A stretch of DNA of 64,000 nucleotides, taken from NCBI GenBank assembly GCA_017864995.1, contig GCA_017864995.1_4097.1. One strand, written 5' to 3'. How positions within the stretch are numbered: the stretch's first letter is position 1; every line of letters starts with the position of its first letter. The translations under genes and the position numbers were made by a program. The stretch is from a phage. A model generated the notes under the pieces. It did not search any database. It had not been told where the DNA came from and worked only from the letters and a program-made list of their open reading frames with translations. Of the stretch, positions 6,290 to 20,838 are shown in pieces.

Positions 6290-8230
6290 TAGACAGGGGA
6301 AGCTCCGCAGGGAAAGCATTGGACAGGCTTTAACATATGTTATATATGTTAAAATTCAGCCTGGACAAATGCGATCACTAGGATTCTCCCCAGGCTAAAC
6401 CCCGTAATCATATGTAGTCATAAGTAATCATATATAAACATTTATATGAGCACCGTAGAATCACAGAATGATTATATATGATTCAGTACTGATTATTATA
6501 GACAAGATTACTCAAGAATGCTAGGGAAGGATTCAGTACTGCCCCAAAAGTATTCAGTACTGAAGGTGTCGATATGCCACTAAGTAGGCAGAGGAAGTCT
6601 GCCGTACTTTGTAGTTTCCAAGCTCCTTTTCCAATTTGCAAATTACATCAAATGTAATCAAAAGTAATCACGCAATGATTAGTACTGAATTATTACTTTC
6701 ACCTTAATTACAATTACCCTTTTACCCTTCGGGGTAAAATTCAATTACCCCTTGAGGCTCCAGCAAAAAGTTGGTTAGTACTCCATCCTAAATCTCGATC
6801 CTAAAAATTTTGGAGTACCTATGAAATAAAAGTTGGATCTTCGAAAGTTGAAATTTACGTTGGGACGTTTATGATTTGTGGGATATAATGATGTTTGTAG
6901 TCGGGTAGTTCTCAAGAATATCAGTACTGAAAGATGAAAGAAAGTTATTGACTTTATGATTCAGTACTGTATAATGTTCTACATAGGGTGATGAGTTGCT
7001 GCGAACAATTCATTTACTCTACCTCCTGTCGTGAGACAGTACAGAAAAGATAGTTCCTCCTGTGGTGGTGGTACATCTTTTTGAACCTCATATGAAAATC
7101 GTAATAACAGTACTGATATTAACAGAATGGTGTCAGTACTGATTTTAATCTAAAGCATTATGCCACCAGCTTGTGCTGGTGGATTCCCTCTAACAGTATT
7201 CAGTACTACATGATGGTCTTCATCCTCCTAGGGTAACATAGTGAGGGCTATGATGGCAGTACTGAATACTCCCTTTCAAAAGATAGATCTATGGTATAGT
7301 ACTGACGGATTTTGGGTGTAGTTACCCTGGATGGATTTTGGACGTAGATATGTCTAGCCCTCCAGAAGTCTGGAAGTAAAGATGGCTATCCATCTAGACG
7401 GCTAAACGGCTAGATTTCTGGATGGCTGGATGGCTAGACGTTTGGACGGCTAAACGGCTAGATGGTTACACGTCTGGAAGTATAGACGGCTAAATCAAAA
7501 TTTTATTTTGTTTTTTCCAATAGTTCCCCTACCGCGTGGGGATAGTTTCCCCGCAGTATCTGGTGTTAGATTTTTCTGAATCTGGAATCATTATCTTATA
7601 AACTGGGGGCAATGTCAACGACCTGGACGGATATTTTTAAAAATTTTTTCAGTACTGAATTTTGGGCGTAACTATGCACCCGGTGGGCTTGAGTCTTTCT
7701 CGACTTGATGGAACTATTATACAGTACTGAAAAAATAAAGCAATACCCTGGAAGCAAAAAAGTTTTAATTAATTTGCTTGCTATCCTGGGCCGGACTATG
7801 GTACTATATTTCAGTACTGAGAAAGTGCGTTTACCTGCTAGGGTGCGGGAGTGTATCCTTTTTTTATATCTTGAATTTTGGGCGTAATTCCGCACCCTCT
7901 GGGGTTTCCGCTTTCTCGCGTCTATGTAGTAATTATACGCTTTTTCAGGATCAAGTCAATACCTAAAAACAAAATAATTGAAAATAATTTAACGCGTTTA
8001 AACTGCCCGTAACGCCCTGGAATGATTGGAATGGTGCAAATGTATAGCTTAGGTGTACTAATGCGTTAGAATGCGTCTGAGGCCGTTTTACGGGGTATAG
8101 GGATGATTTAGTGGATTGATTCAGTACTGAATAATAGTACTACTATATAGAAAGATAGTTCCCCTGGATGGTTGCAGTACTGAATGATAGTTTCCCTATA
8201 TAGAAAGAAAACTATTTTAAAAGTATTTGT
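6290..8230. other. ~2 kb non-coding hub with dense palindromes and repeats
   Basis: no RBS-supported ORF; many CAGTACTG palindromes; hairpins incl. TTTTACCC-ttcg-GGGTAAAA at 6720-6739; track ORFs here rejected. Confidence 0.5.
7360..7500. repeat. iteron-like direct repeats (GGCTA core)
   Basis: about 8 copies of r-GA-y-GGCTA-r incl. ACGGCTAAACGGCTAGAT x2 and GTCTGGAAGTA-A/T-AGA-y-GGCTA x2. Confidence 0.5.
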
Positions 8231-8239
8231 AGAAAGTAC

Positions 8240-8267
8240 TTGCACCGTACTGATAAAAGCGTATAAT
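8240..8267 (+). promoter_or_regulatory. class I promoter (TTGCAC-16-TATAAT, then GTTTTACATC)
   Basis: near-consensus hexamers; same cassette recurs upstream of many genes. Confidence 0.6.
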
Positions 8268-8281
8268 GTTTTACATCGAGA

Positions 8282-8298
8282 GCGGGAACTCTTCCCGC
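8282..8298 (+). promoter_or_regulatory. 5'-UTR hairpin GCGGGAA-ctc-TTCCCGC
   Basis: perfect 7-bp inverted repeat ~15 nt after -10; no U-run; RBS follows. Confidence 0.5.
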
Positions 8299-8322
8299 TA
8301 CACTTTAAGAGAGATTAAAACG

Positions 8323-8685
8323 ATGGCAACTCAAATCACCAAAATTATTGCTAACCTGGTTAACTTCCGCGACGAGATGAAAGATCTTCCGGCGGTAACG
8401 GTTAAAACTCACATTGACGCATACCGCGAACTGATTAAAATGCTGCCGCTTAAGCGTGAACAATACGCCGCTACCGTGATGCTTGATGCGATGATCCATA
8501 AGATGATCTCCCATGATTTAACGATGGTTTATCAGTACATGGGCGAAAATTTCGCGGTGTGTAGTACGCCAGTACCAGGGATGGCAACAACTGAGGAATT
8601 GCACGGTTTAAATTTAAAACAAGATGCATGGGATAATATGCCTCGTTTCCTGGTATGGGCTGACAGTGGCAAAATTTACAAATAA
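8323..8685 (+). CDS. hypothetical protein (120 aa)
   Basis: start MATQITK after RBS TAAGAGAG (track start 8266 lies in hairpin). Confidence 0.6.
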   Translation: MATQITKIIANLVNFRDEMKDLPAVTVKTHIDAYRELIKMLPLKREQYAATVMLDAMIHKMISHDLTMVYQYMGENFAVCSTPVPGMATTEELHGLNLKQDAWDNMPRFLVWADSGKIYK

Positions 8686-8699
8686 GTTTAATAAAGTAC

Positions 8700-8727
8700 T
8701 TGCAAACTATGTTTAAAAGCGTATAAT
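8700..8727 (+). promoter_or_regulatory. class I promoter (TTGCAA-16-TATAAT)
   Basis: followed by hairpin GGGGAA-tag-TTCCCC at 8742-8756. Confidence 0.6.
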
Positions 8728-8779
8728 GTTTTACATCAGGTGGGGAATAGTTCCCCACTATAATTAAGAGATTAATTGT

Positions 8780-9013
8780 ATGAGTACTATTTTAACTGTT
8801 TCTCAATCCGTTGCACTGACTGACCTATTAAACGCTTTAAGCCGTTGCACTGAGGTTGGCTTGTTTGATGCGGTTGACGTTGCACCGGACGTTATTAATC
8901 ATTTTTGTGATGCGATGGAAGAATGTAAGGAAGATGATAGCCGTATGATGGCGGTCGCCTTTGAGGAAGTACAGCCAGGTGAGATCAAAGGTTTACCAGT
9001 ACTGAAAAAATAG
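8780..9013 (+). CDS. hypothetical protein (77 aa)
   Basis: MSTILTVSQ; RBS AAGAG; Cys/acidic-rich. Confidence 0.6.
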   Translation: MSTILTVSQSVALTDLLNALSRCTEVGLFDAVDVAPDVINHFCDAMEECKEDDSRMMAVAFEEVQPGEIKGLPVLKK

Positions 9014-9016
9014 TAC

Positions 9017-9044
9017 TTGCAAACTATGTTTAAAGGCGTATAAT
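9017..9044 (+). promoter_or_regulatory. class I promoter (TTGCAA-16-TATAAT)
   Basis: followed by hairpin GGGGAA-tag-TTCCCC at 9059-9073. Confidence 0.6.
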
Positions 9045-9095
9045 GTTTTACATCAGGTGGGGAATAGTTCCCCACTATATAAGAGGATTAAAAAA

Positions 9096-9335
9096 ATGGC
9101 TAAATCAAAAATGTTCTTAGGTCACAAAAACAAAACTCATTGGAATGTAAGCCTTTGGATTAATAACGATGAGGGATTGTATCGGTTGGCCCTGGATTTT
9201 ATTAACGATAACACTAATCGCAATGATGCGGCCCGTCATATGATGTTATTTTTAGAACAGACTGGACAAGATAAAACACCGGACGGATTCAAATATAGCA
9301 CTACTGCGATCCGTGCGGCGATGGTTGGAATGTAA
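9096..9335 (+). CDS. hypothetical protein, paralog of 11133-11372
   Basis: MAKSKMFLGHKNKTHWNVSLWINN...TPDGFKYSTTAIRAAMVGM shared with 11133 gene. Confidence 0.6.
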   Translation: MAKSKMFLGHKNKTHWNVSLWINNDEGLYRLALDFINDNTNRNDAARHMMLFLEQTGQDKTPDGFKYSTTAIRAAMVGM

Positions 9336-9349
9336 TAGAATTTATTTAA

Positions 9350-9383
9350 AGTACTATCATTTTTTGCGATAGTACTTTATAAT
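9350..9383 (+). promoter_or_regulatory. class II promoter (AGTACT...AGTACT-tt-TATAAT)
   Basis: two AGTACT hexamers 21 bp apart, second abutting TATAAT; weak -35. Confidence 0.4.
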
Positions 9384-9420
9384 AGTGTTTTATTCATACA
9401 CCAACGATAAGGGCAACAGC

Positions 9421-9687
9421 ATGAATATTAAGTATTTTGCGACGCGTGAACAAGCTCGGATCGCCGCACGCCAGGACGGGGCAACGTTTAAAGATATGGG
9501 CGTACAATCGGAACGTGGTAAACGTTGGGCCATTGTAAAGCGTAGTACCGCCAGATCATTACAGTACTGGTTAGCGGCCTTAAAAAGTCCCGATAGTGTA
9601 TCGCGTCGAGTGGTAGAAATAAAGCTCGACCGAAAGGGCAACCGCGTGACCGTGTACCGTACTAAAAAGATTGCAGTACTTGAATAA
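9421..9687 (+). CDS. hypothetical protein, paralog of 21258-21653
   Basis: MNIKYFATREQARIAARQDGATFKDMG...RKGNRVTVYRTKK shared with 21258 gene. Confidence 0.6.
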   Translation: MNIKYFATREQARIAARQDGATFKDMGVQSERGKRWAIVKRSTARSLQYWLAALKSPDSVSRRVVEIKLDRKGNRVTVYRTKKIAVLE

Positions 9688-9694
9688 AAAGTAC

Positions 9695-9722
9695 TTGCAA
9701 ACTATGTTTAAAGGCGTATAAT
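9695..9722 (+). promoter_or_regulatory. class I promoter (TTGCAA-16-TATAAT)
   Basis: followed by hairpin GCGGGAA-ctc-TTCCCGC at 9737-9753. Confidence 0.6.
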
Positions 9723-9774
9723 GTTTTACATCGAGAGCGGGAACTCTTCCCGCCTATAACCTGGAGTAATAAAA

Positions 9775-10005
9775 ATGACTAATATGTATATGACTGAAGT
9801 TAAAACCGTAAAAGATACTACCACGAATAAAACTACTTACTTACAGCGGATCTGTGGTGTATGGCAACGTATCAGCAAATCAAAGTACTTTAAATTAACA
9901 TCATATGCAAATCGTTCGGATTCATTCAGTACTGAAATAAAAGGTAATAAAGTACACCAATACGGCACTTATTATTATTATAGCCTGGACGCGATTGCAG
10001 TATAA
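9775..10005 (+). CDS. hypothetical protein (76 aa)
   Basis: MTNMYMTEVK; RBS CTGGAG. Confidence 0.55.
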   Translation: MTNMYMTEVKTVKDTTTNKTTYLQRICGVWQRISKSKYFKLTSYANRSDSFSTEIKGNKVHQYGTYYYYSLDAIAV

Positions 10006-10252
10006 GCAGTTTACAAATCTTTACAATTGCCGGTATTGACTTATTTTGTCAGTACTGGCATAATGTATTCATTGGCAGATAAGCCGTAGCCCATAGGGTG
10101 CGGGAGTGTATCTATAGCAAAATTAGTTTAGTATAGTTACAATTGTGCACCCGGTGGGTTAGCTGTTGTCATGGGGTATATTATGCCAGTACTTGATAAT
10201 GCTGTCAATACTTTTTTACTATTCAGTACTGAAAACTATTTTTAAAAAGTAC

Positions 10253-10280
10253 TTGCAAACTATGTTTAAAGGCGTATAAT
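10253..10280 (+). promoter_or_regulatory. class I promoter (TTGCAA-16-TATAAT)
   Basis: drives conserved leader element 10291-10369. Confidence 0.5.
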
Positions 10281-10290
10281 GTTTTACATC

Positions 10291-10369
10291 AGGACGGGGA
10301 ACGAAATAAGTAACTTCCCGTTAAGTAGCCCAGGAGTAAGGCACACGAAAAACTCCCCTGATAAAATAG
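10291..10369 (+). ncRNA. candidate structured leader/sRNA element (copy 1)
   Basis: AGGACGGGGAACGAAATAAGTAAC..CCCGTTAAGTAG..CAGGAGTAAG..ACGAAAAACTCCCCTG; near-identical copy at 20066-20143. Confidence 0.3.
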
Positions 10370-10370
10370 T

Positions 10371-10398
10371 TTGACAATAGAAAGTAAAAGCGTATAAT
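10371..10398 (+). promoter_or_regulatory. promoter TTGACA-16-TATAAT
   Basis: second promoter immediately upstream of 10431 gene. Confidence 0.5.
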
Positions 10399-10430
10399 AC
10401 TTACATCAACTACTGAATGAGGGTTACAAA

Positions 10431-11042
10431 ATGAAAACTATCACTACTACTACTTTTGTTATGGCTTTTTCTGAACTGAACGCAGAACAAAAAACGGCGG
10501 CTATCGAACTGGTTCGGGATCGTGAGCGTTCATGTGAGGATAATTTCTTTGCTGAGGGCGTTATCGAGTACTATAAAGAAACAGTACTACCAGAATACGG
10601 CATAGATGAAGCTGAATTGCAATACAGTGGTTTTTGGTCGCAAGGTGACGGTGCATCAATCAGTACTGACCACGTTGACGCAGTGAAGTTTTTACGCAAG
10701 GTAAGAGCATTAACTAAGTATCGCTCAATCCGTCACTTGCTGAATGAAGATGATTTGGCGATGAGTGTAGAACGTTCACACTCTCGCTACGCACACGAAA
10801 ACACGGTAAGCGGGTACATTGAATCGGCTTACACTGATTTAACCGCAAAACAAGAAACGTTAGTTAATGAGCTTGAGGAACTACTCACTGATACTATTCG
10901 TGAATTGTCCCGCAAGTTGTACCGTGATTTAGAGAATGCATATGAGGATCAATTCACTACTGAAAACATTACGGCACTGATTGAGGGTAACGAATATCAA
11001 TTCAATGTTATTGATGGCGTAGTGGAATCAATCGAATATTAA
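10431..11042 (+). CDS. hypothetical acidic protein (203 aa)
   Basis: MKTITTTTFVMAF; largest gene in this block; function unknown. Confidence 0.6.
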   Translation: MKTITTTTFVMAFSELNAEQKTAAIELVRDRERSCEDNFFAEGVIEYYKETVLPEYGIDEAELQYSGFWSQGDGASISTDHVDAVKFLRKVRALTKYRSIRHLLNEDDLAMSVERSHSRYAHENTVSGYIESAYTDLTAKQETLVNELEELLTDTIRELSRKLYRDLENAYEDQFTTENITALIEGNEYQFNVIDGVVESIEY

Positions 11043-11054
11043 TTTAAAAAGTAC

Positions 11055-11082
11055 TTGCAAACTAAGTTTAAAAGCGTATAAT
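11055..11082 (+). promoter_or_regulatory. class I promoter (TTGCAA-16-TATAAT)
   Basis: followed by hairpin GGCGGGGA..TCCCCGC. Confidence 0.6.
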
Positions 11083-11132
11083 ACTTTACATCAAGGCGGG
11101 GAGTGGTTCCCCGCTCAAACGAGGATTTAAAA

Positions 11133-11372
11133 ATGGCTAGTACTAAAACTTACAACGGACACAAAAACAAAACTCATTGGAATGTAAGCCTTTGGATTAA
11201 TAACGGTGAGTCATTGTATCGGCTTGCTCAAAGTTGCATCGCACAAAGTAGAACTAAAGATATTGCTGCGGAATGTATGTACCGCAGATTAAAAGCCAAC
11301 GGTACTACTACAACGCCGGACGGCTTTAAGTATAGCACTACTGCGATCCGTGCTGCAATGGTTGGAATGTAA
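11133..11372 (+). CDS. hypothetical protein, paralog of 9096-9335
   Basis: MASTKTYNGHKNKTHWNVSLWINN...; start at RBS-supported internal Met. Confidence 0.6.
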   Translation: MASTKTYNGHKNKTHWNVSLWINNGESLYRLAQSCIAQSRTKDIAAECMYRRLKANGTTTTPDGFKYSTTAIRAAMVGM

Positions 11373-11392
11373 TATTCAGTACTGAGATAATG

Positions 11393-11415
11393 GCGGGTAA
11401 TAGTTCCCGCCTTTA
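11393..11415 (+). terminator. intergenic hairpin GGCGGG-N7-CCCGCC (weak terminator or processing site)
   Basis: same hairpin type as the 5'-UTR hairpins but no promoter; weak T-run. Confidence 0.3.
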
Positions 11416-11429
11416 CTGAGGGTTATCTA

Positions 11430-11690
11430 ATGAGTAAAGTAATTAGCTATACAGCACTAAGCAAGACATTATCTATTAGCCAGTGCACCGATGGTTATTG
11501 GCTATTTGATGAAACGCGTGGCATGAATTTAGCCATGCGTGCAAAAACTGCTGAGGCGGCGTATCTTGAAGCATTGGAATACTACCAGGAACGTTTAAAG
11601 GAAGTAGAAGAAGATTATAAAAGCCTCAAAGCGAAAGTAGATCATTTCGTCGGTCAATTCATCGAGGAAGACGACGACAAACAATATTGA
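11430..11690 (+). CDS. hypothetical protein (86 aa)
   Basis: MSKVISYTALSK; RBS GAGGG. Confidence 0.55.
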   Translation: MSKVISYTALSKTLSISQCTDGYWLFDETRGMNLAMRAKTAEAAYLEALEYYQERLKEVEEDYKSLKAKVDHFVGQFIEEDDDKQY

Positions 11691-11776
11691 AAAAGTACTT
11701 GCAATTAGTTTTCAGTACTGTATAATGGTTTACATCAAAGGGAGAAATGGTTCTCCCTGGTAATGAGGAAAATACA

Positions 11777-11998
11777 ATGGCTAATATCACTACTCTTTCC
11801 CAACTGGAAGCACTGGTTAAATCTATGCGGGAACATGCCGACAAAATCGGCGTACAAGATCCAGCCGTTTGCTTCTGCGACGAATTGAATGATGATACCC
11901 TGGTAATAGCAGAAGTCCAGGACGTTTCTAACTATTCCTCGCGTTACACTGGCGGCGTAGCAAATAAAGGCGACTTCTGTTTATACCTTACAAAATAA
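11777..11998 (+). CDS. hypothetical protein (73 aa)
   Basis: start MANITTLSQ after class I promoter plus hairpin GGGAGAA..TTCTCCC. Confidence 0.55.
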   Translation: MANITTLSQLEALVKSMREHADKIGVQDPAVCFCDELNDDTLVIAEVQDVSNYSSRYTGGVANKGDFCLYLTK

Positions 11999-12002
11999 CA
12001 AC

Positions 12003-12035
12003 GCGGGGAGATAATAACTCCCCGTTACTTTTTCA
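12003..12035 (+). terminator. rho-independent terminator
   Basis: GGGGAG-ataataa-CTCCCC followed by TTACTTTTT. Confidence 0.5.
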
Positions 12036-12240
12036 GTACTGAATCATTTAATAGACGGATCTCGGCACCCGGTGGGTTAGTGACTGTTTCGTCTTGATGT
12101 AGTAATTATGCCAGTACTGGATGCACTTGTCAACAACTATTTTTCAAATACTTTTTATTAAAATACTTGCAATTAGTTTTTAAACGCGTATAATGTTTTG
12201 CATAGGGGGAGCGGTTCCCCTGGTAACTAAGGATAATCAA

Positions 12241-12540
12241 ATGAAAATTACAATCATCGCCCTGGCTTTATCTGTTTCCTCTTTCGCTGTTAATGCGTCA
12301 TTAGATGTAAGTAGTGAAAAATTCATTCAGTGCACTGTTGCAATGACCGATGAAAGTACTGGCGAGATTGTATTAAAGGATCTGGAGATTCAGCCGGAAG
12401 CATTTAAAAACGGCCCGTTCCATGAAGAAGACGAAAACGGTAGCACGACAATTTATTATGATGCCAGTACTAAACGCGGTTCGGTCACTGTCATGGATAC
12501 TGAGAAAGTAACTCATACCGGCGTTATTAATTGCCGTTGA
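12241..12540 (+). CDS. small secreted/periplasmic protein (signal peptide)
   Basis: start MKITIIALALSVSSFAVNA-SLD, typical signal peptide; class I promoter plus hairpin upstream. Confidence 0.55.
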   Translation: MKITIIALALSVSSFAVNASLDVSSEKFIQCTVAMTDESTGEIVLKDLEIQPEAFKNGPFHEEDENGSTTIYYDASTKRGSVTVMDTEKVTHTGVINCR

Positions 12541-12561
12541 TAGATACTACGGGGTAACATC

Positions 12562-12792
12562 ATGACTAAGCGAATTGTTTTACTTAACGAAAGCAGTACT
12601 ACACAACTACTTAACGCCGTGCATTATGATATTGAAACGAGCGTTAATCTTATCAGTACTGTAGTACTGTTGGACACTGGAAAGGTCGCCAATGATAAAG
12701 CGATTGCAGGTATATTAACGGATCTTGAGCCTGGTCGCAGTGCACCAATAACGTTAAATTGTAAAGTGTTTAATATTTTACTCACTGATTAA
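12562..12792 (+). CDS. hypothetical protein (76 aa)
   Basis: MTKRIVLLNESS; followed by strong terminator. Confidence 0.5.
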   Translation: MTKRIVLLNESSTTQLLNAVHYDIETSVNLISTVVLLDTGKVANDKAIAGILTDLEPGRSAPITLNCKVFNILLTD

Positions 12793-12798
12793 GTACAT

Positions 12799-12826
12799 AG
12801 CCCACCTGGTGGGCTTTTTTGTTTTT
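12799..12826 (+). terminator. rho-independent terminator
   Basis: AGCCCACC-t-GGTGGGCT then TTTTTTGTTTTT. Confidence 0.7.
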
Positions 12827-12874
12827 GTAGTATCGTAGTACTGAGATACTTTGAAAATAGTTTTAAGAAAGTAG

Positions 12875-12902
12875 TTGACATTACCGCAGAAAAGCGTAGA
12901 AT
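12875..12902 (+). promoter_or_regulatory. promoter TTGACA-16-TAGAAT
   Basis: followed by ~110-nt leader related to the 10291/20066 elements. Confidence 0.45.
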
Positions 12903-13031
12903 GTATTACATCAAGACGGGGAGCACTAAGTAGACCGCCAGTAAGTCGAACGAAAAACTGGACACGTCGAGAAAACTTTGATACACTAATAAACGTAAAC
13001 GTAAACTTAACTTTAATTGAGGATTTATAAA

Positions 13032-13514
13032 ATGGCTAATGTAAAATCATTCATCAAAGCACTGGTAGCAAATGAAACTAACGTCGCGGCTGAGATCCTG
13101 GCTGAACTGGATAACGATACCATGAAAGCGGTACGCAATAATTTTAACATCGCGTACAGTACTGCGAAAGAACTACAAGCAAATAAAGCGGCAGAAATTG
13201 AAGCGGCAAAGGCGGCCCGTGAAGCAGAACTAAAAGCAACAATTGAAAGTATCCAGGCGGCAGTAGTTGGATTGGATCTGGAAGTAGTTACAGAGATGGC
13301 ACAAAAAGCCCTGGCGGTTAAGTATGGGGAAGACAAGCCAGAAGTAAAAGCCAAAAAATGGATTCAGGAACGCGTAGCGGTAGTACTGGACAACGGGGAA
13401 GAATATCTGATTCCGGTGCGTGGTAACTGCATTGCGGTAGTACTGGACGCGATTAACTCCAGTGGTATGACTCGCGAGGAATGGATCGAAGCTCATCGCA
13501 AAGTTGAAGCATAA
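13032..13514 (+). CDS. hypothetical Ala/Glu/Lys-rich coiled-coil-like protein
   Basis: MANVKSFIKAL...AAEIEAAKAAREAELKATIESIQAA; RBS GAGGA. Confidence 0.6.
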   Translation: MANVKSFIKALVANETNVAAEILAELDNDTMKAVRNNFNIAYSTAKELQANKAAEIEAAKAAREAELKATIESIQAAVVGLDLEVVTEMAQKALAVKYGEDKPEVKAKKWIQERVAVVLDNGEEYLIPVRGNCIAVVLDAINSSGMTREEWIEAHRKVEA

Positions 13515-13535
13515 CAATTAAAGTACTGAATCACT

Positions 13536-13566
13536 AGCCCACCTTAAACGGTGGGCTTTTTTGTGT
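13536..13566 (+). terminator. rho-independent terminator
   Basis: AGCCCACC-ttaaac-GGTGGGCT then TTTTTTGTGTTT. Confidence 0.7.
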
Positions 13567-13716
13567 TTATCGTTTACCAGGCCACCAGCACCGCCTAGAA
13601 ACGATTCTAACGCATTAAACTGATTATCTGATGCATTGCCCTAGCTGGTGGCGGTAAGGTCGTTGTAATGCGATTGAGAGCGTTTAAAGTATTTTGCAAA
13701 AAGTAATAAAAAGTAC

Positions 13717-13744
13717 TTGCACGATTAAGAGATTAGCGTATAAT
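13717..13744 (+). promoter_or_regulatory. class I promoter (TTGCAC-16-TATAAT)
   Basis: followed by hairpin GAGAGGGGGAA..TTCTCC. Confidence 0.55.
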
Positions 13745-13799
13745 GTTTTACATCGAGAGGGGGAAACGGTTCTCCTTCCAAATCAAAGGAATCAAAACA

Positions 13800-14027
13800 A
13801 TGGCTATTATCATTACTCGCGTATCTGGTACTACTGGCAACGAACAAGTAGTTGCAGTCATTACCATCAAGGAAGGTGCGGAATTGCAAAATGCAATGAA
13901 TACCTGGGCCGTTAATGAGTTCGGTCAGTGGGCAAGTGTAGCATACATTGAAACCTATCAAGTGCCGTCGATTAGTTTAACTGATTTGGGCGTTGAGCGT
14001 ATCCTTTGCCTTGATGAATTAAATTAA
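13800..14027 (+). CDS. hypothetical protein (75 aa)
   Basis: start MAIIITRVSG (track start 13743 lies in promoter/hairpin). Confidence 0.55.
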   Translation: MAIIITRVSGTTGNEQVVAVITIKEGAELQNAMNTWAVNEFGQWASVAYIETYQVPSISLTDLGVERILCLDELN

Positions 14028-14112
14028 AAAGTACTTGCAAAGTAAATCGAATAAAGTATAATACATTACATCAAGGGGAGAAAATGGTTCTCCCCACTAC
14101 AAGGAAACTAAA

Positions 14113-14256
14113 ATGAAAACTTGTCAATGTGGTCAGAAATCTATTACTGGTTTAAAGCGGGGCGTTGCACTTTGCCAGTACCATTATAATTTACAAGTAT
14201 GGGGTAAAGAATGGGCCGACCAGGTGGAAGCAGCAAAGAAAGCAAAAAGTAAGTAA
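14113..14256 (+). CDS. tiny Cys-containing protein (47 aa, below track cutoff)
   Basis: MKTCQCGQKS...LCQYHYN; own class I promoter plus hairpin upstream. Confidence 0.45.
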   Translation: MKTCQCGQKSITGLKRGVALCQYHYNLQVWGKEWADQVEAAKKAKSK

Positions 14257-14275
14257 AAATATTATCACAGTACTA

Positions 14276-14304
14276 TTGACATAGTTTGATAGTACTGGCA
14301 TAAT
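14276..14304 (+). promoter_or_regulatory. class II promoter (AGTACTaTTGACA-N9-gatAGTACTGg-CATAAT)
   Basis: TTGACA-17-CATAAT flanked by two AGTACT; near-identical copies at 17116 and 25293. Confidence 0.5.
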
Positions 14305-14345
14305 AGATTTTATCAAGACAACATATTAATTTAAGGAATACTAAA

Positions 14346-14669
14346 ATGGCTAAAACTATCATTAACACCGTTTCCCTGGCTGCAATCCGTGCAATCAATG
14401 TTGACGGTAAACGTTGGACTGATTCATATGGCAATACTTATCATTCTTGTCATGTAAGCGTCGAACTGGATAACGGTTTGAATGATCTGGCGGTTGAATC
14501 ATTTACTTATGGCTATGAAGATGCATATCAACAAACGGCGTTAGATCTATTAAAGGAATCAGTAGACGGGCTTAATACTGATGAAACCTCCCTTACTCGT
14601 TTGTGCAATGATCTTAATATCCCGTTGCATTGTACTGTACATAATGTTAAACGCAAAAAAGATCTTTAA
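14346..14669 (+). CDS. hypothetical protein, paralog of 20839-21162
   Basis: shared RWTDSYGNTYHSC..FTYGY..VKRKKD with 20839 gene. Confidence 0.6.
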   Translation: MAKTIINTVSLAAIRAINVDGKRWTDSYGNTYHSCHVSVELDNGLNDLAVESFTYGYEDAYQQTALDLLKESVDGLNTDETSLTRLCNDLNIPLHCTVHNVKRKKDL

Positions 14670-14749
14670 TTAGCTTTACTTTATGCAGATACTTTGATAT
14701 AGTGTCTGCATAGGGGAAAGAAATTAAATTAACTTAAGAGGAACGTATA

Positions 14750-15019
14750 ATGAAAAATATCAGTACTTTAATCGATGCAGGTACTCATGTTCGTCGGTCT
14801 ATGGTTGCAACCAGTACTACAAAACAAGTACCAAGCGGTTATCTTGTATTTGTGTACGATGGTAAACTCCTGGAACGTTCAATCAATTTTGATGTTAAAA
14901 ACAATTGCCGTTTTATTATCTTTAAGCGTGAACAATATAAAATTGATTTACCAGCAAAGCCCATAAGCGGGGCGTACAACGTGCAATCATTGTTTGAACG
15001 TCAACCATACACCTATTAA
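14750..15019 (+). CDS. hypothetical protein (89 aa)
   Basis: MKNISTLIDAG; RBS AAGAGGAA. Confidence 0.55.
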   Translation: MKNISTLIDAGTHVRRSMVATSTTKQVPSGYLVFVYDGKLLERSINFDVKNNCRFIIFKREQYKIDLPAKPISGAYNVQSLFERQPYTY

Positions 15020-15070
15020 TCAAAACATCGTTAGCGGTCGATTTAGGCCGCTTATATTGGGGATTATACC

Positions 15071-15343
15071 ATGAACGTTAATCAAGTACTGAATGAAGTT
15101 GAAAGCATCATTAAACCAATGAAACGCATTGATGCTATGTTAACACCGGAAGAATGCCGCCTTTATGAGCGTTACAGCGTCGAACAAGTCCAGGCGATGG
15201 CTATGGCTACCCCAGCCGTTAAACCGCCTGAGAATGCGTTACAGGACGTTACAGGGGATTATATCATCAATCCAGTACTAGGGAAGATGGCTGCAATCAC
15301 CGAAGATCAACAAGACTACTTAAGCCAGTACTTAAAAGGTTAA
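15071..15343 (+). CDS. hypothetical protein (90 aa)
   Basis: MNVNQVLNEVES; RBS GGGGA. Confidence 0.55.
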   Translation: MNVNQVLNEVESIIKPMKRIDAMLTPEECRLYERYSVEQVQAMAMATPAVKPPENALQDVTGDYIINPVLGKMAAITEDQQDYLSQYLKG

Positions 15344-15348
15344 TTAAT

Positions 15349-15558
15349 ATGCTTACTGTACAGGATAAGATCGACATCTTAAAGGTTAATATGTATGTGA
15401 TTGATGCAGTACCTGGTAAAGTATTTGCATACGATGACACCACTGTAAGCGATTTCTACTATAGCCAGGACGTGGGGGATCTTTCTGTACAGTCGGTTAT
15501 TGAAAACGTAGTTAATGCAGCGTATGAGCATTTACTTTCAAATAGTACTTGCAATTAG
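15349..15558 (+). CDS. hypothetical protein (69 aa)
   Basis: MLTVQDKIDILK; closely follows upstream gene. Confidence 0.5.
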   Translation: MLTVQDKIDILKVNMYVIDAVPGKVFAYDDTTVSDFYYSQDVGDLSVQSVIENVVNAAYEHLLSNSTCN

Positions 15559-15627
15559 TTTTTAAACGCGTATAATGTTTTACATGAAGGGGAGAAATGA
15601 TTCTCCCCACTAATTAAGGAATATGAA

Positions 15628-15774
15628 ATGAAAGCATCAAAAAAGAGTAATACTAAGAAAGCACGTTCACCTTTCGCTGGGGTATTCCCTTTACGTTTCG
15701 TTGATGAAGTAGTTTCCTACCCGCCGGGCCTTACTCCTGAGATGGTAGAAAGTTTGCGTAAATCTAAAAAATAG
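15628..15774 (+). CDS. small basic protein (48 aa, below track cutoff)
   Basis: MKASKKSNTKKARSPFAG...; class I promoter plus hairpin GGGGAGAA..TTCTCCCC upstream. Confidence 0.45.
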   Translation: MKASKKSNTKKARSPFAGVFPLRFVDEVVSYPPGLTPEMVESLRKSKK

Positions 15775-15855
15775 TACTTGCAATTAGTTTTTAGTACTGT
15801 ATAATGTTTTACATGAAGGGGAGAAATGATTCTCCCCAATAACAGGAGAATCAAA

Positions 15856-16008
15856 ATGAAACAATACAACGCTCGGTTTGATGTTACTATCGGTAACGGC
15901 AAAGGTCAATTCTCTTTCAGTACTCGCAAAAGTTATACAGAAAACTTCCTGCGTAATTGTGCACTGACCGCCGCACAAATTAAACATTATTTTCAGGCTA
16001 AAAAATGA
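15856..16008 (+). CDS. hypothetical protein (50 aa)
   Basis: start MKQYNARFD after RBS CAGGAGAA; class I promoter plus hairpin upstream. Confidence 0.5.
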   Translation: MKQYNARFDVTIGNGKGQFSFSTRKSYTENFLRNCALTAAQIKHYFQAKK

Positions 16009-16094
16009 AAACATTAGCTTACTATAGTTCGGCCCTGGTCGGTGCATTGATCGCGGCGTTGTTAGTAACCTATCTATTCTTTATGGTGATTTAA
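16005..16094 (+). CDS. candidate 29-aa single-pass membrane peptide
   Basis: MKTLAYYSSALVGALIAALLVTYLFFMVI; ATGA overlap with upstream stop. Confidence 0.35.
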   Translation: MKTLAYYSSALVGALIAALLVTYLFFMVI

Positions 16095-16238
16095 ATGAAT
16101 CCAACAGGTTTAAACTATAAAAGTTGTTCGGCATTTACGAAAGCAAATAAAGCGAATGCACGTAAAGCGAAAGTACAAGAATACATCAAGCAAGGCATGA
16201 CGCGAAAGGCGGCGATTCTAAAAGCTAAAAATAAATGA
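16095..16238 (+). CDS. small basic protein (47 aa)
   Basis: MNPTGLNYKSCSAFTKANKANARKAKVQEYIKQG; abuts upstream ORF. Confidence 0.4.
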   Translation: MNPTGLNYKSCSAFTKANKANARKAKVQEYIKQGMTRKAAILKAKNK

Positions 16239-16459
16239 AAAAAGTGGTTGACTCCGGTCAGCCATTTTGCTATTATATATTCATTGAGAGATAGCTCACT
16301 AGCCCACAGGGTGCATAAGTGTATCTATTATATAAGTATTGAGTACTGAAAACTATTTTAAAAGTATTTGTAGAAAGTACTTGCAAACTATCTCAATAAG
16401 CGTATAATGTTTTACATCGAAAGGGGAAACGGTTTCCCCTGGTAATAAGGAAACGAATC

Positions 16460-16801
16460 ATGACTATCTCAATTGCTCAATCTAACTTTGAAAATGAAAT
16501 CATCGCCCAGGCACTGCGTTTAAATGATGGTCGGGCCGAAATTAATTACGGTTTCAATTCAGGCGGTTGCGAAAACTATCAGTACTTTGTAACGGCTGAT
16601 GGCGGTGTCCTGGGTATCAATACAGTTATTGTAAACATCCAAAAAATTAATTTCAATGATCCAGACGATAGCCAGTTTTACATCACTGGCGTAGACGTGA
16701 ACTATGAGGATGACTCACTAACTGATGATTACACTGGCGAGCGGTTAGAAAGTGCATACGGTGAAGATGATTATCAGTCCGGTCCAGAAGATTTCGAATA
16801 A
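16460..16801 (+). CDS. hypothetical acidic protein (113 aa)
   Basis: MTISIAQSNF; Asp/Glu-rich C-term; class I promoter plus hairpin upstream. Confidence 0.6.
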   Translation: MTISIAQSNFENEIIAQALRLNDGRAEINYGFNSGGCENYQYFVTADGGVLGINTVIVNIQKINFNDPDDSQFYITGVDVNYEDDSLTDDYTGERLESAYGEDDYQSGPEDFE

Positions 16802-16897
16802 TATAAAAAAATAGTTTGACAATAGATTATAGTACTGTATAATAGTTTACATCAAGGGGAGAGATGATTCTCCCCACTAACAGAGAGAGAAAACAAA

Positions 16898-17110
16898 ATG
16901 GCTAATATCTGCACTGTACTGAAAAATGCAAAACAAGTTTTATTTTCTGATCACGATCATTTAAACAAGGATATTACTGGCGTTCGGAATATCAAAGATG
17001 TAAAAAGTGTTATGGGTATCTATTGCAATATGAAACGTGTTGGAACGTTCGGCGACAAAGTACTATACCAGGCAGGGGATTACAATTTTACACTGACTAT
17101 CATTAACTAA
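16898..17110 (+). CDS. hypothetical protein (70 aa)
   Basis: MANICTVLKNAK; promoter TTGACA-16-TATAAT plus hairpin upstream. Confidence 0.55.
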   Translation: MANICTVLKNAKQVLFSDHDHLNKDITGVRNIKDVKSVMGIYCNMKRVGTFGDKVLYQAGDYNFTLTIIN

Positions 17111-17193
17111 AAATATTATCACAGTACTATTGACATAGTTTGATAGTACTGACATAATAACTTTTATCAACTACACTACTAAGGAATTAAAAA

Positions 17194-17373
17194 ATGGCTA
17201 TCATCGCAAAAACTGAAATCGTTGGTCTGGATTCTATCATCATGACGTTTGAAGATCAAAAAGGTATGTATGTAGTTTCATATGGTGATTATGTTCGGGA
17301 GTATGAAACGGTAGACGAAGCCTTTGAAAGTTATATTCGCCAGGTGAATAAAGCATACGACGACTACCGCTAA
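17194..17373 (+). CDS. hypothetical protein (59 aa, below track cutoff)
   Basis: MAIIAKTEIVGLD; class II promoter upstream; RBS AAGGAA. Confidence 0.5.
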   Translation: MAIIAKTEIVGLDSIIMTFEDQKGMYVVSYGDYVREYETVDEAFESYIRQVNKAYDDYR

Positions 17374-17463
17374 AATATATTACCAGTACTATTGACAACG
17401 TTTGATAGTACTGTATAATAAGTTTTATAAACAGTAGTTAACTTAACCTAAGAGAGAAATAAA

Positions 17464-17607
17464 ATGATCGCACTGGATTCATTCATCGACGCAGTACTGG
17501 CAAAAACTGGCGAGGATCTGACCGCAGAACAATACGCGATGATCGAGCAATGTCAGCAAAACGGTAAATCGGTGAAAGATACTGTTAAGATTATCCGCAA
17601 GATGTAA
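17464..17607 (+). CDS. hypothetical protein (47 aa)
   Basis: MIALDSFIDAVLAK; class II promoter upstream; terminator downstream. Confidence 0.45.
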   Translation: MIALDSFIDAVLAKTGEDLTAEQYAMIEQCQQNGKSVKDTVKIIRKM

Positions 17608-17613
17608 TATTAT

Positions 17614-17643
17614 AGCCCACTGGTTAACGCTGGTGGGCTTTAA
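17614..17643 (+). terminator. terminator-like hairpin
   Basis: AGCCCAC-N12-GTGGGCT then TTTAATC; stem contains GCTGGTGG. Confidence 0.45.
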
Positions 17644-17706
17644 TCATTTACCCTATACAATGCCAGTACTCAACCGTTTATCTCGTTAGAATGCGTTACA
17701 GGACGT

Positions 17707-17919
17707 TTGACAATGATTAGCATGAAATCAGTACAAAAACAAATAGAAACATTATCAAAAATTAAACGTAAACAGTACTCGTTAGAATATACAATCAATG
17801 GTAACTATCATCTAATGAAAGAGAATAATTTCATTGTCATTGATGAATCATTGCAAGTTATTAGTATAGTACTGAAAGCATTAATCAATGACAGAAAAAA
17901 AATTAAAATAATCTATTGA
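17707..17919 (+). CDS. hypothetical protein (70 aa)
   Basis: ORF only; weak RBS and no clear promoter. Confidence 0.3.
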   Translation: MTMISMKSVQKQIETLSKIKRKQYSLEYTINGNYHLMKENNFIVIDESLQVISIVLKALINDRKKIKIIY

Positions 17920-18240
17920 CAATATCCTCCAGTACTGGCATAATACTTACATCAAGACGAGAACGTCACTAACCCATAGGGTGCACAAATGTAACTATAT
18001 AATATCGATCAATAAATGATCAAAAAAGTACTGGATCAATTTAGCATAAGGCGTATAATTCTGATCAATTCTTGATCAAAGGCAATATACGCAGTTGAAT
18101 TTATATAGACAGTACAAAGGCGTTACTATCCGTGGTAATGCTGGTGGATATGTAGTATCATGTGGTTTGAATAAGATTAGCACTAGTAGTATTATTGTAG
18201 CATTACAGTACTATAGTATTTTTATAATGAGGTTAAAATA

Positions 18241-18498
18241 ATGGCAGTAGGATACGCGAAAGACGGGGCCGAACAAGACGAGATTAACGCAGTGATTCAG
18301 GCAGCCGTTAACCACGCTAGAAAGCAAATTAACGCACAAAGAGAATCACTGGTACATTGCCTCGACTGCGGCGATAAAATCCCTGAGAATCGACGCCAGG
18401 CCGTTATAGGGTGCATGTATTGTATTACTTGCCAGGAGGATCATGATAGTACTTTTAAAAGAGATCCGCGTAATTGTTGGCATAGATCTATGAGATAA
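18241..18498 (+). CDS. TraR/DksA-family C4 zinc-finger protein
   Basis: RKQINAQ...CLDCGDKIPENRRQAVIGCMYCITCQ matches the TraR-type C-x2-C-G-x2-IPE-x-RR...C-x2-CQ pattern. Confidence 0.7.
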   Translation: MAVGYAKDGAEQDEINAVIQAAVNHARKQINAQRESLVHCLDCGDKIPENRRQAVIGCMYCITCQEDHDSTFKRDPRNCWHRSMR

Positions 18499-18505
18499 AA
18501 AGTAA

Positions 18506-18533
18506 TTGACAGTACTGAAAGATAGTGTATAAT
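18506..18533 (+). promoter_or_regulatory. promoter TTGACA-16-TATAAT
   Basis: AGTACTG in spacer; upstream of GNAT-like gene. Confidence 0.5.
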
Positions 18534-18562
18534 GTTTTATATCTTAACTGAGGATAGTAATC

Positions 18563-18919
18563 ATGGGAATACAACATATCACGCGTACTACTGACAATGG
18601 CGAGATCACTGGTTATCAGGTACAGGGCAAAGTAGCACAATTGCAGTACTGGTTTGTTAAACGTGGAATCATTGCACCGGATCTTGATTATGACCGTGTA
18701 GCGTTTATTGATTCTCTTTATGTTGATCCTGATAGTCGGGGCAATGGTGAAGGTAACGAATTAATGAATGCCTTTATTGATGCCGCCGATGATTCAGATT
18801 GTATCATCTTAGAATGCGATACGGGAGAAGATAACGCCTTTAATCTTAAAGAATGGTACGAAGGTTTCGGATTCGAGGTATTGATAGATAGTGAATATCC
18901 TATCATGATTTTATCATAG
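18563..18919 (+). CDS. putative GNAT-like acetyltransferase (small)
   Basis: LYVDPDSRGNGEGNELMNAFIDAA resembles GNAT motif A (R-x-x-G-x-G/A); weak call. Confidence 0.35.
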   Translation: MGIQHITRTTDNGEITGYQVQGKVAQLQYWFVKRGIIAPDLDYDRVAFIDSLYVDPDSRGNGEGNELMNAFIDAADDSDCIILECDTGEDNAFNLKEWYEGFGFEVLIDSEYPIMILS

Positions 18920-18996
18920 TACTTGCATTTAGTTTTCAGTACTGTTATAGTACTTGCATCAAGGGGAAATATCTTCCCCTACTAAGAGGAAATAAA

Positions 18997-19185
18997 ATGG
19001 AAAACTTATCAAGTATTTTAGTACAAGATGATTTCGGTAATCCTGGAAGTGCTATCATTGTTCGGGGCAATAAAGCAACGTTTGTTATTGCTGGTGGACC
19101 CGTACAGCGTAGCATTAAAAATAATGCTGTTACCATTAATAATGTACGCTATCGCTTAGATAAAGAATTAATTCATAAACTGTAA
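18997..19185 (+). CDS. hypothetical protein (62 aa)
   Basis: MENLSSILVQDD; promoter plus hairpin GGGGAAAT..TTCCCC upstream. Confidence 0.55.
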   Translation: MENLSSILVQDDFGNPGSAIIVRGNKATFVIAGGPVQRSIKNNAVTINNVRYRLDKELIHKL

Positions 19186-19270
19186 AAAAGTACTGGACAA
19201 TAGATTATAGTACTGTATAATAGTTTACATGAAGGGGAGAAATGATTCTCCCCACTAAGAGGAAAGAAAA

Positions 19271-19483
19271 ATGCAAGGTCAACTAATCGTTCGTAAATGG
19301 TCTGATACTAACGAAAAACCGTGGGATGTACAATACATCGCCCCCAATGGTGAATCCAGATATCAACCAGGTGTAACGCATAGTACTGAGCAATTCGCCG
19401 CCGCTCATCGCGAACGTCTGTTACAATCAATGCAGCAAGGTTCCGGTGAAAAATTCATTCAGGATCATTGGCTGAAAGATTAA
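19271..19483 (+). CDS. hypothetical protein (70 aa)
   Basis: MQGQLIVRKW; promoter plus hairpin upstream. Confidence 0.55.
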   Translation: MQGQLIVRKWSDTNEKPWDVQYIAPNGESRYQPGVTHSTEQFAAAHRERLLQSMQQGSGEKFIQDHWLKD

Positions 19484-19569
19484 AAAGTACTTGCACAGTA
19501 CTGAATAAAGTGTATAATGTTTTATATCGGAAGGGGAATAGTTCCCCTCCGAACAAAGAGGAAAGTATA

Positions 19570-19743
19570 ATGGTCCAGGTAGAATTAACAGTACTGAAAG
19601 ATCTGTTTTATCGGATTGGTACTACTGGCGAATATCCGAAGGGTGATAATGCAAAACTTTACGTATCACTCGACTTATGGCAACGCGAACAATTAGCAAC
19701 AGCCTGGCGTAAAGGCAAAGCAGATAGCGAGGTGAAAGCATGA
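19570..19743 (+). CDS. hypothetical protein (57 aa)
   Basis: start MVQVELTVLK after RBS AAAGAGGAAAG; track start 19468 lies in promoter. Confidence 0.5.
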   Translation: MVQVELTVLKDLFYRIGTTGEYPKGDNAKLYVSLDLWQREQLATAWRKGKADSEVKA

Positions 19744-19889
19744 AAGAATTCTTATTTGAAGTAGTGTTTCAAGGTGTCGGCAATAACCAACTGATTCGAT
19801 CAAGTGGTTATAATGTTAACCAGGCATGGAATAACATTAAACAAATGTACCCGAACGCTATCACATATCGCAACCCGAAAGAAGTTTAA
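19740..19889 (+). CDS. hypothetical protein (49 aa)
   Basis: MKEFLFEVVFQGVGNN; ATGA overlap with upstream stop. Confidence 0.4.
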   Translation: MKEFLFEVVFQGVGNNQLIRSSGYNVNQAWNNIKQMYPNAITYRNPKEV

Positions 19890-20204
19890 AAAATAATTGA
19901 AAAAGGGATTGACTCCGGTCAGTCCCTTTGCTATTATATACGCATAGAAACAAATCAGCCCACCGGGTGCATAAATGTATCTATTGTTTGCTGGTGGCTA
20001 GTACTGAAAACTATTTTTAAAAAGTACTTGCATTGTACTTATAATCAAGTATAATGTTTTACATCAGGACGGGGAACGAAATAAGTAACCCCGTTAAGTA
20101 GTCCAGGAGTAAGACATACGAAAAACTCCCCTGATAAAATAGTTTGACAATAGAAAGTAAACGAGTATAATACTTACATCAACCACTGATAAGGAAACAT
20201 AAAA

Positions 20205-20480
20205 ATGCGGATTCTACTGACAGCTAACGAAATCGAACAAGTACTGACTACTAACCTGGAAGACTGGAAACGTGAAGCAGATATCCAGGCGGTTCAATGG
20301 TTAAATGATAAGTTAACGCCGGATGACTTAAGCAAGATTGTAGATCCTCAATTCTACGAAGATATCCACGACACCGCGTTAAGCGTCGAGGATGTACTAG
20401 ATAAGCACTTTATTGATACTGATTTGCAGGTTTACGGTCGTAAAAACTTTATCACTATTCACGACATTTACAATAATTAA
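20205..20480 (+). CDS. hypothetical protein (91 aa)
   Basis: MRILLTANEIEQ; downstream of leader element copy 2 and a second promoter. Confidence 0.55.
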   Translation: MRILLTANEIEQVLTTNLEDWKREADIQAVQWLNDKLTPDDLSKIVDPQFYEDIHDTALSVEDVLDKHFIDTDLQVYGRKNFITIHDIYNN

Positions 20481-20567
20481 GTATTGACAAAGTATCTTAG
20501 TACTGTATAATAGTTTACATCGAGAGGGGGGAATGGTTCCCCTCCTAACTAAAAGAGAGAAATAAAA

Positions 20568-20750: not shown

Positions 20751-20838
20751 GTATTGACAAAGTATCTTAGTACTGTATAATAGTTTACATCAAGTGAGGG
20801 GAAACGGTTCCCCTCCTAACAAAGAGAGAGAAATAAAA

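Follow-up and report, generated by a model that had tools for sequence, protein, structure and literature searches.

Among the closest described systems is the put RNA of phage HK022, which is about 70 nucleotides (nt) long, begins at +3 of the PL transcript and folds into two stem-loops with a tertiary triplex, and which binds the zinc-binding domain of beta' and suppresses pausing and termination without any phage protein (PMC9378689). Others are the PeSL cassettes of T4-type phages, mobile units in which an early promoter and a stem-loop flank small genes (PMC2839356), the lambda nut and rrn boxA-boxB signals, and small pseudoknots such as the preQ1-I-type aptamers and that of the T4 gene 32 leader. 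Here we describe an RNA element from a 64-kb stretch of phage DNA (64,000 nt; GenBank assembly GCA_017864995.1, contig GCA_017864995.1_4097.1), called the window in the following, which belongs to an Asteriusvirus-type jumbo coliphage (PBECO4/121Q group; best match JNE01, 97%). The window holds three copies of the element, A (10286-10362), B (20061-20135) and the diverged C (12908-12982), and no other matches, all coordinates being those of the + (transcribed) strand. The element is a conserved, strand-specific, pseudoknotted RNA fold within the 75-100 nt with which early transcripts of the host polymerase begin, and judged by its sequence it is homologous to the leader between promoters A1 and A2 of phage T7. 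Its core consensus of about 35 nt runs from UAAGUA through GNC, one further base, a 5-nt arm of helix S2, (A)UAA, GN'C and NNACGAAAAA to the second 5-nt S2 arm. The two GNC-type triplets form S1, a 3-base-pair (bp) helix that crosses S2 and makes the core an H-type pseudoknot, with a first loop of 1 nt, a second loop UAA and an A-rich third loop of 10 nt (NNACGAAAAA).

The likeness to put RNA lies in place and architecture, as both are cis-encoded RNAs of about 70 nt right behind an early sigma70 promoter, with the 5' end of the transcript drawn into the fold and two stem-loops joined by a tertiary contact. In location and size the element agrees well with put RNA, its closing helix P0 starting 1-3 nt after the predicted transcription start and the whole measuring about 75 nt. 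The two differ in that they share no sequence similarity, that the element is an H-type pseudoknot with the signature UAAGUAG/ACGAAAAA whereas put is a V-shaped pair of long stems, and that the element occurs in virulent phages but put in lambdoid ones; moreover, terminators directly bound one of the element units, and antitermination by the element would be an analogy only. When the whole HK022 genome was scanned with the covariance model R1 with filters off, the best match was partial, lay outside a promoter context and reached 7.7 bits (E 0.88), by which a put RNA homologue was ruled out. The lambda nut and rrn boxA-boxB signals resemble the element as promoter-proximal leader RNA signals on early transcripts. 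A search for boxA (GCTCTTTAACAA-like, up to two mismatches) found none on the + strand of the window and 11 minus-strand matches, which equals the chance expectation, and a lambda-type nut site was ruled out on this ground. The hairpin loop of the element also differs, being 16-17 nt long and pseudoknotted instead of a GNRA-like pentaloop, and no N-like protein is common to the phages that carry it. The T7 leader also has a boxA, seen as CGCTCTTTAACAA, further downstream.

With the PeSL cassettes the window shares dense, nearly identical strong early promoters, stem-loops next to small unassigned genes and the exchange of cassettes between phages (PMC2839356). We count 26 promoter copies with hairpins and one 531-bp cassette with 93% identity to the phage muut, which concerns the genomic setting and not the function of the pseudoknot. 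In contrast, PeSL stem-loops are terminators without conserved loops or a pseudoknot, whereas the structure described here lies 3' of the promoter, as part of the transcript, and its conservation extends well past a single phage group. The preQ1-I-type aptamers and the T4 gene 32 pseudoknot come close in size and shape (core of about 31-35 nt, two short stems, a first loop of 1 nt, an A-rich loop able to line the minor groove, location in a 5' leader) but differ in stem lengths and strand order, and the element has neither an Rfam match nor an expression platform or an autoregulated gene. Rfam 15 gave no match at gathering score in the whole window, only noise (E 5.6-9.5) in a permissive search around copy A, and no match on the element at the loci of T7, phiA1122, Munch, Hallingskeid, LTH01, EJP2 and A73; a scan of the window for tRNA and tmRNA found none. 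A decayed gene start or leader peptide was rejected as well, since the element lacks an ATG and is conserved in the manner of an RNA.

The earlier note on this DNA, drawn from its letters and open reading frames, had proposed a structured leader to be checked by folding and covariation across its copies, and this was borne out, since the stems covary between phage families and a pseudoknot comes in addition. Its second predicted stem, CAGGAG/CTCCCCTG, merges two helices, as GGAG/CUCC is the conserved hairpin stem, S2, and CCUGAU pairs instead with AUCAGG at the 5' end of the transcript. In an alignment of 36 distinct core sequences (alignment A2) the invariant positions read (U/C)AAGUAG.C.....G.UAAG.C..A.GAAA..C, and the junction UAAGUAG is found in 36/36, with T or C as the first base and the remainder invariant. 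Within S2 (columns 29-33 with 51-55) 94.4% of the cells are paired and the inner four pairs are paired without exception, compared to 22-46% when the register is slid by 1-3 columns as a control, and four of the five pairs have changed on both sides. The stem reads GGAG/CUCC in copies A and B, CCAG/CUGG in copy C and phage Munch, GCCUG/CAGGC or CAGGU in T7-like phages, and GCUUG/CAAGC, ACUUG/CAAGU or UCCUG/CAGGA elsewhere. Nine G-U pairs occur in S2 and they are compatible with the transcribed strand only.

The highest mutual information in the same alignment connects column 26, in the junction 5' of S2, with column 39 inside the S2 loop. This is the middle pair of S1, which is Watson-Crick in all 36 sequences (A-U in 26, U-A in six, C-G in three and G-C in one) and is flanked by the invariant pairs G25..C40 and C27..G38. 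Columns 26 and 39 were left free in all scan patterns and column 27 in all scans after the first, so that the covariation of S1 was not imposed by the pattern. As a negative control, S1 could be formed in none of 13 distinct non-phage pattern matches but in all 24 distinct phage cores. The control includes a non-phage family from the metagenome loci L047, L052, L054, L055, L063-L065 and L069 (GTAAGTAAGTAAGTAGG...TAAGGCRCACGAAAAC, followed by a stem of its own), which matches the scan pattern by sequence without the S1 and S2 pairings. The near-identical repeats that had been reported at 10291-10369 and 20066-20143 are indeed both present and differ by a 2-nt indel and three substitutions, of which two form a compensatory S1 pair (C10329-G10341 to U20102-A20114). 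The hairpin HP1, with about 20 different stem sequences across phages, abuts UAAGUAG in every long-type copy and is absent from the short type, to which copy C, EJP2, Hallingskeid and LTH01 belong. All three copies of the window have the junction, S1 (GNC:GN'C), an S2 of 4-5 bp and a third loop of the ACGAAAAA type, on the transcribed strand and 3' of an early promoter. Since a 23-base degenerate core pattern hits exactly three window sites (0.00 expected from shuffles) and an R1 scan of the entire window, filters off, yields three matches of 55-60 bits (60.5 for copy B, 55.0 for copy C), all on the + strand, before a runner-up of 8.4 bits, chance is excluded. We regard it as practically certain that the RNA structure is real and selected at the RNA level.

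The 89-nt version of the element was found with 88-100% identity in 45 phage records, which span Asteriusvirus, the Justusliebigvirus phages of about 145 kb (outra, muut, EmilieFrey) and Vequintavirinae (A73, W70, A7_1, A5-4). The carriers in Justusliebigvirus and Vequintavirinae keep the order of a first promoter P1, the element and a second promoter P2 before differing genes, and the tandem-promoter placement recurs in nearly every phage family that has the element. Copy C used as query led to T7-like Yersinia phages (nt 553-587, between the early promoters A1 and A2), and when IMG/VR and metagenomes were scanned with patterns, dozens of T7-like contigs proved to have the core. T7 itself is one of them, with the core at nt 551-587 between A1 and A2. 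By BLAST the T7 version is present in 486 records, at one place each, among them T3, K1F and phages of Klebsiella, Pantoea, Serratia, Edwardsiella and Aeromonas. R1 scored six T7-like loci at 48-79 bits, from Limelightvirus (LIMElight), Melnykvirinae (EspYZU05), K1F, PZL-Ah1, KX1 and Titus. The core also occurs in Munch-like jumbo phages of Salmonella and Klebsiella, in Erwinia phage Hallingskeid, in the Vequintavirinae LTH01/UPEC06 and in Asteriusvirus EJP2, and the metagenome scan added further T7-like and jumbo variants. Between phage groups only the core of about 35 nt can be aligned, the flanks having diverged fully while the loops stay fixed. Outside phages a scan of 185,579 prokaryotic species (GTDB, one genome each) gave two chance matches without the stems and one T7-like contig in a metagenome-assembled genome, and there was no match in 5,426 complete E. 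coli genomes or in 72,556 plasmids, by which a bacterial or prophage origin was ruled out.

Over 531 bp the copy B cassette (element, P2 and a 91-amino-acid gene; window 20049-20575) shares 93% identity with Justusliebigvirus muut, an unrelated 146-kb phage, and the shared stretch begins at the -10 region of P1. From this match it follows that promoter-RNA-gene cassettes move between phage families. A literature search by topic and by literal sequence, which did not cover the older subscription literature, found T7 A1/A2 DNA used only as a template and no description of the element, and a large RNA family with a member in T7 thus appears to have gone undescribed.

A third helix is added outside the core. 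In T7-like phages (alignment A3) the HP1 loop pairs with 5-6 nt that begin one base 3' of S2, and this helix, S3, is formed by GUCAA:UUGAC, GAUUAG:CUAAUC, GUCGGU:ACCGAC, GUCAUC:GAUGAC, GCUAA:UUAGC or GUCAAG:CUUGAC, with five of its six pairs changed on both sides. The whole T7-like structure of S1, S2 and S3 has 8 double-changed pairs compared to 3.9 +/- 1.0 after shuffling (0/500). In most T7-like phages the 3' strand of S3 is the -35 hexamer of A2 transcribed into RNA; in those with a more distant A2 this strand is free to vary and covaries with the HP1 loop. At the same position 3' of S2 the window copies and other myoviruses have a strand which pairs with the first nucleotides of the P1 transcript (+3 to +8 in copies A and B), giving P0. 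That P0 is part of the fold is suggestive only, as the case for it comes from the analogy with S3 and two compensatory changes (Hallingskeid compared to the metagenome locus L048, Munch compared to L073).

In another reading only the DNA counts, either as an UP-like part of the second promoter or as a recently transferred mobile promoter cassette, and the RNA structure is incidental. The A-tract of T7 lies about 5 nt 5' of the -35 hexamer of A2 (589-594), the expected place of an UP element, another promoter almost always follows the element, and cassette transfer is documented by muut and has its analogue in the PeSL cassettes of T4-like phages (PMC2839356). Such a reading leaves unexplained why three helices show compensatory changes, why the G-U pairs are strand-specific, why the distance to the promoter varies and why the loops are fixed between fully diverged flanks, and we give it hardly any credence. 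T7 has about 1 nt between S2 and the next -35 hexamer and copies A and B have 14 nt, whereas the gap is about 25-50 nt in A7_1, Munch and the LIMElight-like locus L010, where the next promoter is further off. Because of this wide variation and the covarying stems the A-tract cannot be merely the UP element of P2, which was rejected as the sole explanation.

In complexity and conservation the fold, which packs two pseudoknotted helices into about 70 nt and has an A-rich third loop, recalls small pseudoknot aptamers, and the element might be riboswitch-like or a small ribozyme that ties early expression to the state of the host by binding a metabolite or ion or by cleaving itself. We judge this to be very unlikely, as no expression platform (neither a terminator nor an alternative pairing of the ribosome binding site) goes with the fold, the T7 gene starts about 340 nt and two promoters away, and no riboswitch or ribozyme model of Rfam matches even at E <= 10. 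We also know of no report of cleavage from decades of in vitro transcription from T7 A1. A hammerhead-like three-way junction (CUGAU.., CGAAA) was rejected, as the core nucleotides do not fit and Rfam gives no match.

As had been described in the earlier note, copies A and B each lie between a sigma70-type P1 and a perfect-consensus P2, and they are followed by unrelated genes (10431-11042 and 20205-20480), which belong to different PHROG families, both of unassigned function. The third, diverged copy it had mentioned is found at about 12908-12982, 5' of the gene at 13032. As the downstream genes are unrelated, gene-specific regulation is argued against, and a gene-specific operator was discarded for the same reason. 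No terminator-like site (GC-rich hairpin plus U-run) was found within 10286-10431 or 20061-20205, which also ruled out an attenuator of the intrinsic-terminator type for copies A and B. Concerning a small RNA gene, a promoter of its own is present and a terminator is absent, which makes a discrete primary transcript of about 80 nt unlikely unless it is processed.

This bears on the idea of a decoy or aptamer acting in trans, in which the folded RNA, made abundantly from the strongest early promoters and acting in the 5' untranslated region or after processing, titrates a host RNA-binding protein or a factor of defence or RNA decay. Loops that hardly vary, stems that do and the lack of the motif in bacteria suggest a host partner. 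The unique jumbo genome has three copies, which are probably doubled by the terminal repeat, and the element has passed horizontally from phage to unrelated phage within early accessory regions. Its T7 version is located immediately 5' of the anti-restriction gene ocr, and the tandem P2 frees gene expression from the element. We nevertheless consider a decoy unlikely, because the window has neither a terminator nor a mapped processing site that would release a small RNA, and T7-like genomes keep one copy each, more like a core than an accessory function.

Alternatively, the element could be a stabiliser at the 5' end, where knot and closing helix hide the end of the transcript, block 5'-end-dependent RNase E and lengthen the life of early mRNA. 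A simple 5' hairpin follows nearly all of the approximately 26 early promoters of the window, HP1 of copies A and B resembles an expanded version of it, and P0 pairs nucleotides +3 to +8. A generic barrier, however, does not need about 20 near-invariant unpaired nucleotides, and in T7 the module comes about 38 nt after a separate 5' hairpin, in a leader which we take to be severed from the mRNAs by RNase III at R0.3. Transcripts from P2, A2 and A3 do not have the element at all, and a stabiliser seems quite unlikely to us.

We favour instead a host-directed early-leader RNA. The element would be an RNA-level module of the immediate-early transcripts made by host sigma70 RNA polymerase, its pseudoknot usually preceded by HP1 and probably locked by a further helix, P0 or S3, and it would have moved between unrelated virulent phages of Enterobacterales within promoter cassettes. 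It would fold co-transcriptionally and be recognised by a conserved host macromolecule. The favoured candidate for the latter is the elongating RNA polymerase from which the RNA has just emerged, with suppressed pausing and termination on the first phage transcripts as a put-like outcome; recognition might also take place later, on the free leader RNA. Recognition by a host macromolecule is suggested by the near-invariant loops and unpaired nucleotides, by the lack of early proteins common to the carriers, by bacteria being free of the motif, by the unrelated downstream genes and by the presumed release of the T7 leader from the mRNAs by RNase III. As put RNA needs nothing but the host RNA polymerase (PMC9378689), an action of this kind would explain the conservation across unrelated phages.

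Several observations weigh against the favoured explanation. The T7 transcripts from A2 and A3 cover the same operon yet are made without the element, copy C is part of a monocistronic unit between good terminators at 12799 and 13536, which is unexpected for an antitermination site, and there is no sequence homology to put RNA (best E 0.88 with R1 over the HK022 genome). P0 is invariant within the A/B type, and single P0 helices do no better than shuffles. Early transcription of T7 also ends efficiently at TE. For the favoured explanation as a whole, a host-directed early-leader RNA that most likely acts on the transcribing RNA polymerase, we arrive at a probability of about one in three. That the element works through some host macromolecule we find fairly probable, and a put-like action specifically on the transcribing polymerase rather doubtful. 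In a bolder reading, with odds close to even, the element represents a so far undescribed structured RNA class whose fold is a nested double pseudoknot. More than 500 virulent phage genomes, T7, T3 and K1F among them, would carry it, from five or more unrelated lineages, and it would be a specific ligand of a core host machine (RNA polymerase, Rho, RNase E or the ribosome) or of an immune sensor.

Few phages have been studied as much as T7, whose A1 promoter and leader serve transcription biochemistry as standard tools. A strongly covarying and extremely conserved pseudoknot common to T7, jumbo, rV5-like and phAPEC8-like phages points to an overlooked function in early infection that uses host components only. 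Should its target be RNA polymerase or some other host machine, the RNA would represent a new class of protein-free regulatory RNA and a protein-free takeover of the first minutes of infection, and it would help to understand how the first transcripts are secured by unrelated phages. Caution would then be advisable with T7 A1 templates that do or do not include nt 536-593. The movement of promoter-plus-RNA cassettes between phage families is shown in any case. The coordinates of all features are collected in Table 1.

Table 1. Coordinates of the element, its helices and the adjoining promoters in the window (copies A, B and C) and in phage T7. SD, Shine-Dalgarno sequence.
Feature	Position	Strand	Remarks
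Copy A, promoter P1	10253..10280	+	TTGCAA-16-TATAAT; consensus scan and sequence
Copy A, predicted transcript start	near A10286-A10288	+	from promoter spacing alone
Copy A, closing helix P0, 5' arm	10288..10293	+	AUCAGG; pairs with 10357-10362; minimum free energy and centroid fold
Copy A, hairpin HP1	10294..10321	+	ACGGGGA / UUCCCGU, 14-nt loop; directly abuts UAAGUAG
Copy A, junction UAAGUAG	10322..10328	+	near-invariant; last G opens S1
Copy A, pseudoknot helix S1	10328..10342	+	G10328-C10329-C10330 with G10340-G10341-C10342; span also holds S2 5' arm (10333-10336) and loop L2 UAA (10337-10339)
Copy A, helix S2	10333..10356	+	GGAG 10333-10336 with CUCC 10353-10356
Copy A, loop L3	10343-10352	+	ACACGAAAAA; A-rich, conserved, enclosed by S2
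Copy A, P0, 3' arm	10357..10362	+	CCUGAU; contiguous with S2
Copy A, promoter P2	10371..10398	+	TTGACA-16-TATAAT, 12/12; then SD and gene 10431-11042
Copy B, promoter P1	20028..20055	+	TTGCAT-16-TATAAT; sequence and repeat families
Copy B, element	20063..20135	+	P0 20063-20068 with 20130-20135; HP1 20069-20094; UAAGUAG 20095-20101
Copy B, helices		+	S1 20101-20103 with 20113-20115 (GUC:GAC); S2 20106-20109 with 20126-20129
Copy B, promoter P2	20144..20171	+	TTGACA-16-TATAAT, 12/12; then gene 20205-20480
Copy C, promoter P1	12875..12902	+	TTGACA-16-TAGAAT
Copy C, element	12910..12982	+	short type without HP1; UAAGUAG 12927-12933
Copy C, P0 (suggestive only)		+	outer AUCAA 12910-12914 with UUGAU 12978-12982; inner GACG 12915-12918 with CGUC 12965-12968
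Copy C, helices		+	S1 12933-12935 with 12945-12947 (GAC:GUC); S2 CCAG 12938-12941 with CUGG 12958-12961
Copy C, downstream		+	gene 13032-13514, then terminator 13536-13557
T7, A1 start	A498
T7, 5' hairpin	499-533
T7, HP1	536-549
T7, UAAGUAG	551-557
T7, S1	557-559 with 570-572
T7, S2	561-565 with 583-587
T7, S3	541-545 with 589-593
T7, A2 -35 hexamer	589-594		TTGACA

The promoters around the element belong to a larger set of about 26 near-identical early promoters between 6.9 and 26.5 kb of the window (6941-26541), all on the + strand. They are of the sigma70 type, AAAGTACTTGCA-N16-TATAATGTTTTACATC, and behind nearly all of them come a GC-rich 5' hairpin, which spans about +8 to +30, and a small open reading frame. 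The initial transcribed sequence of T7 A1, AUCGAGAGGG, is present at several window promoters, for example near 13753, 20523, 23338 and 24686. P2 (TTGACAATAGAAAGTAA..., 10371-10400 and 20144-20173) and T7 A2/A3 (TTGACAACATGAAGTAA..., T7 589-650) are alike in spacer and hexamers, and from this resemblance the whole arrangement of P1, RNA and P2 may share ancestry with T7 A1-A2. Promoters of a second class, different from those in front of the element, are found at 14250-14316, 17104-17170, 17366-17432, 25276-25342 and 26045-26111; in them AGTACT motifs recur and the -10 is extended (TTGACA-17-TGnCATAAT).

Records with an annotated direct terminal repeat show copies A and C within it, a few kb away from the left end, and as the repeat-including records have four places of the A/B type, copy B is probably inside the repeat as well. 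Comparison with records that start at the terminal repeat puts the left genome end at about window position 6560, and 8-bp periodic repeats (GGATGGCT / AGACGGCT / AAACGGCT) are found about 0.8 kb inside of it, at 7332-7491. Another repeat family, at 16227-16320, 19888-19981, 23155-23248 and 25909-26002, has one of its copies just 5' of element copy B. It consists of a 12-bp terminator-like hairpin, AAAGGGATTGACTCCGGTCAGTCCCTTT, in which a TTGACT -35 hexamer is embedded, followed by the -10-like GCTATTATAT and a second conserved hairpin, GCCCACCGGGTGC. Small genes that are diverged tandem paralogues form several arrays at 28396-32470, 33564-34130 and 44586-53218, corresponding to the direct-repeat families D9-D16 and D20 with a spacing of about 200-490 bp.

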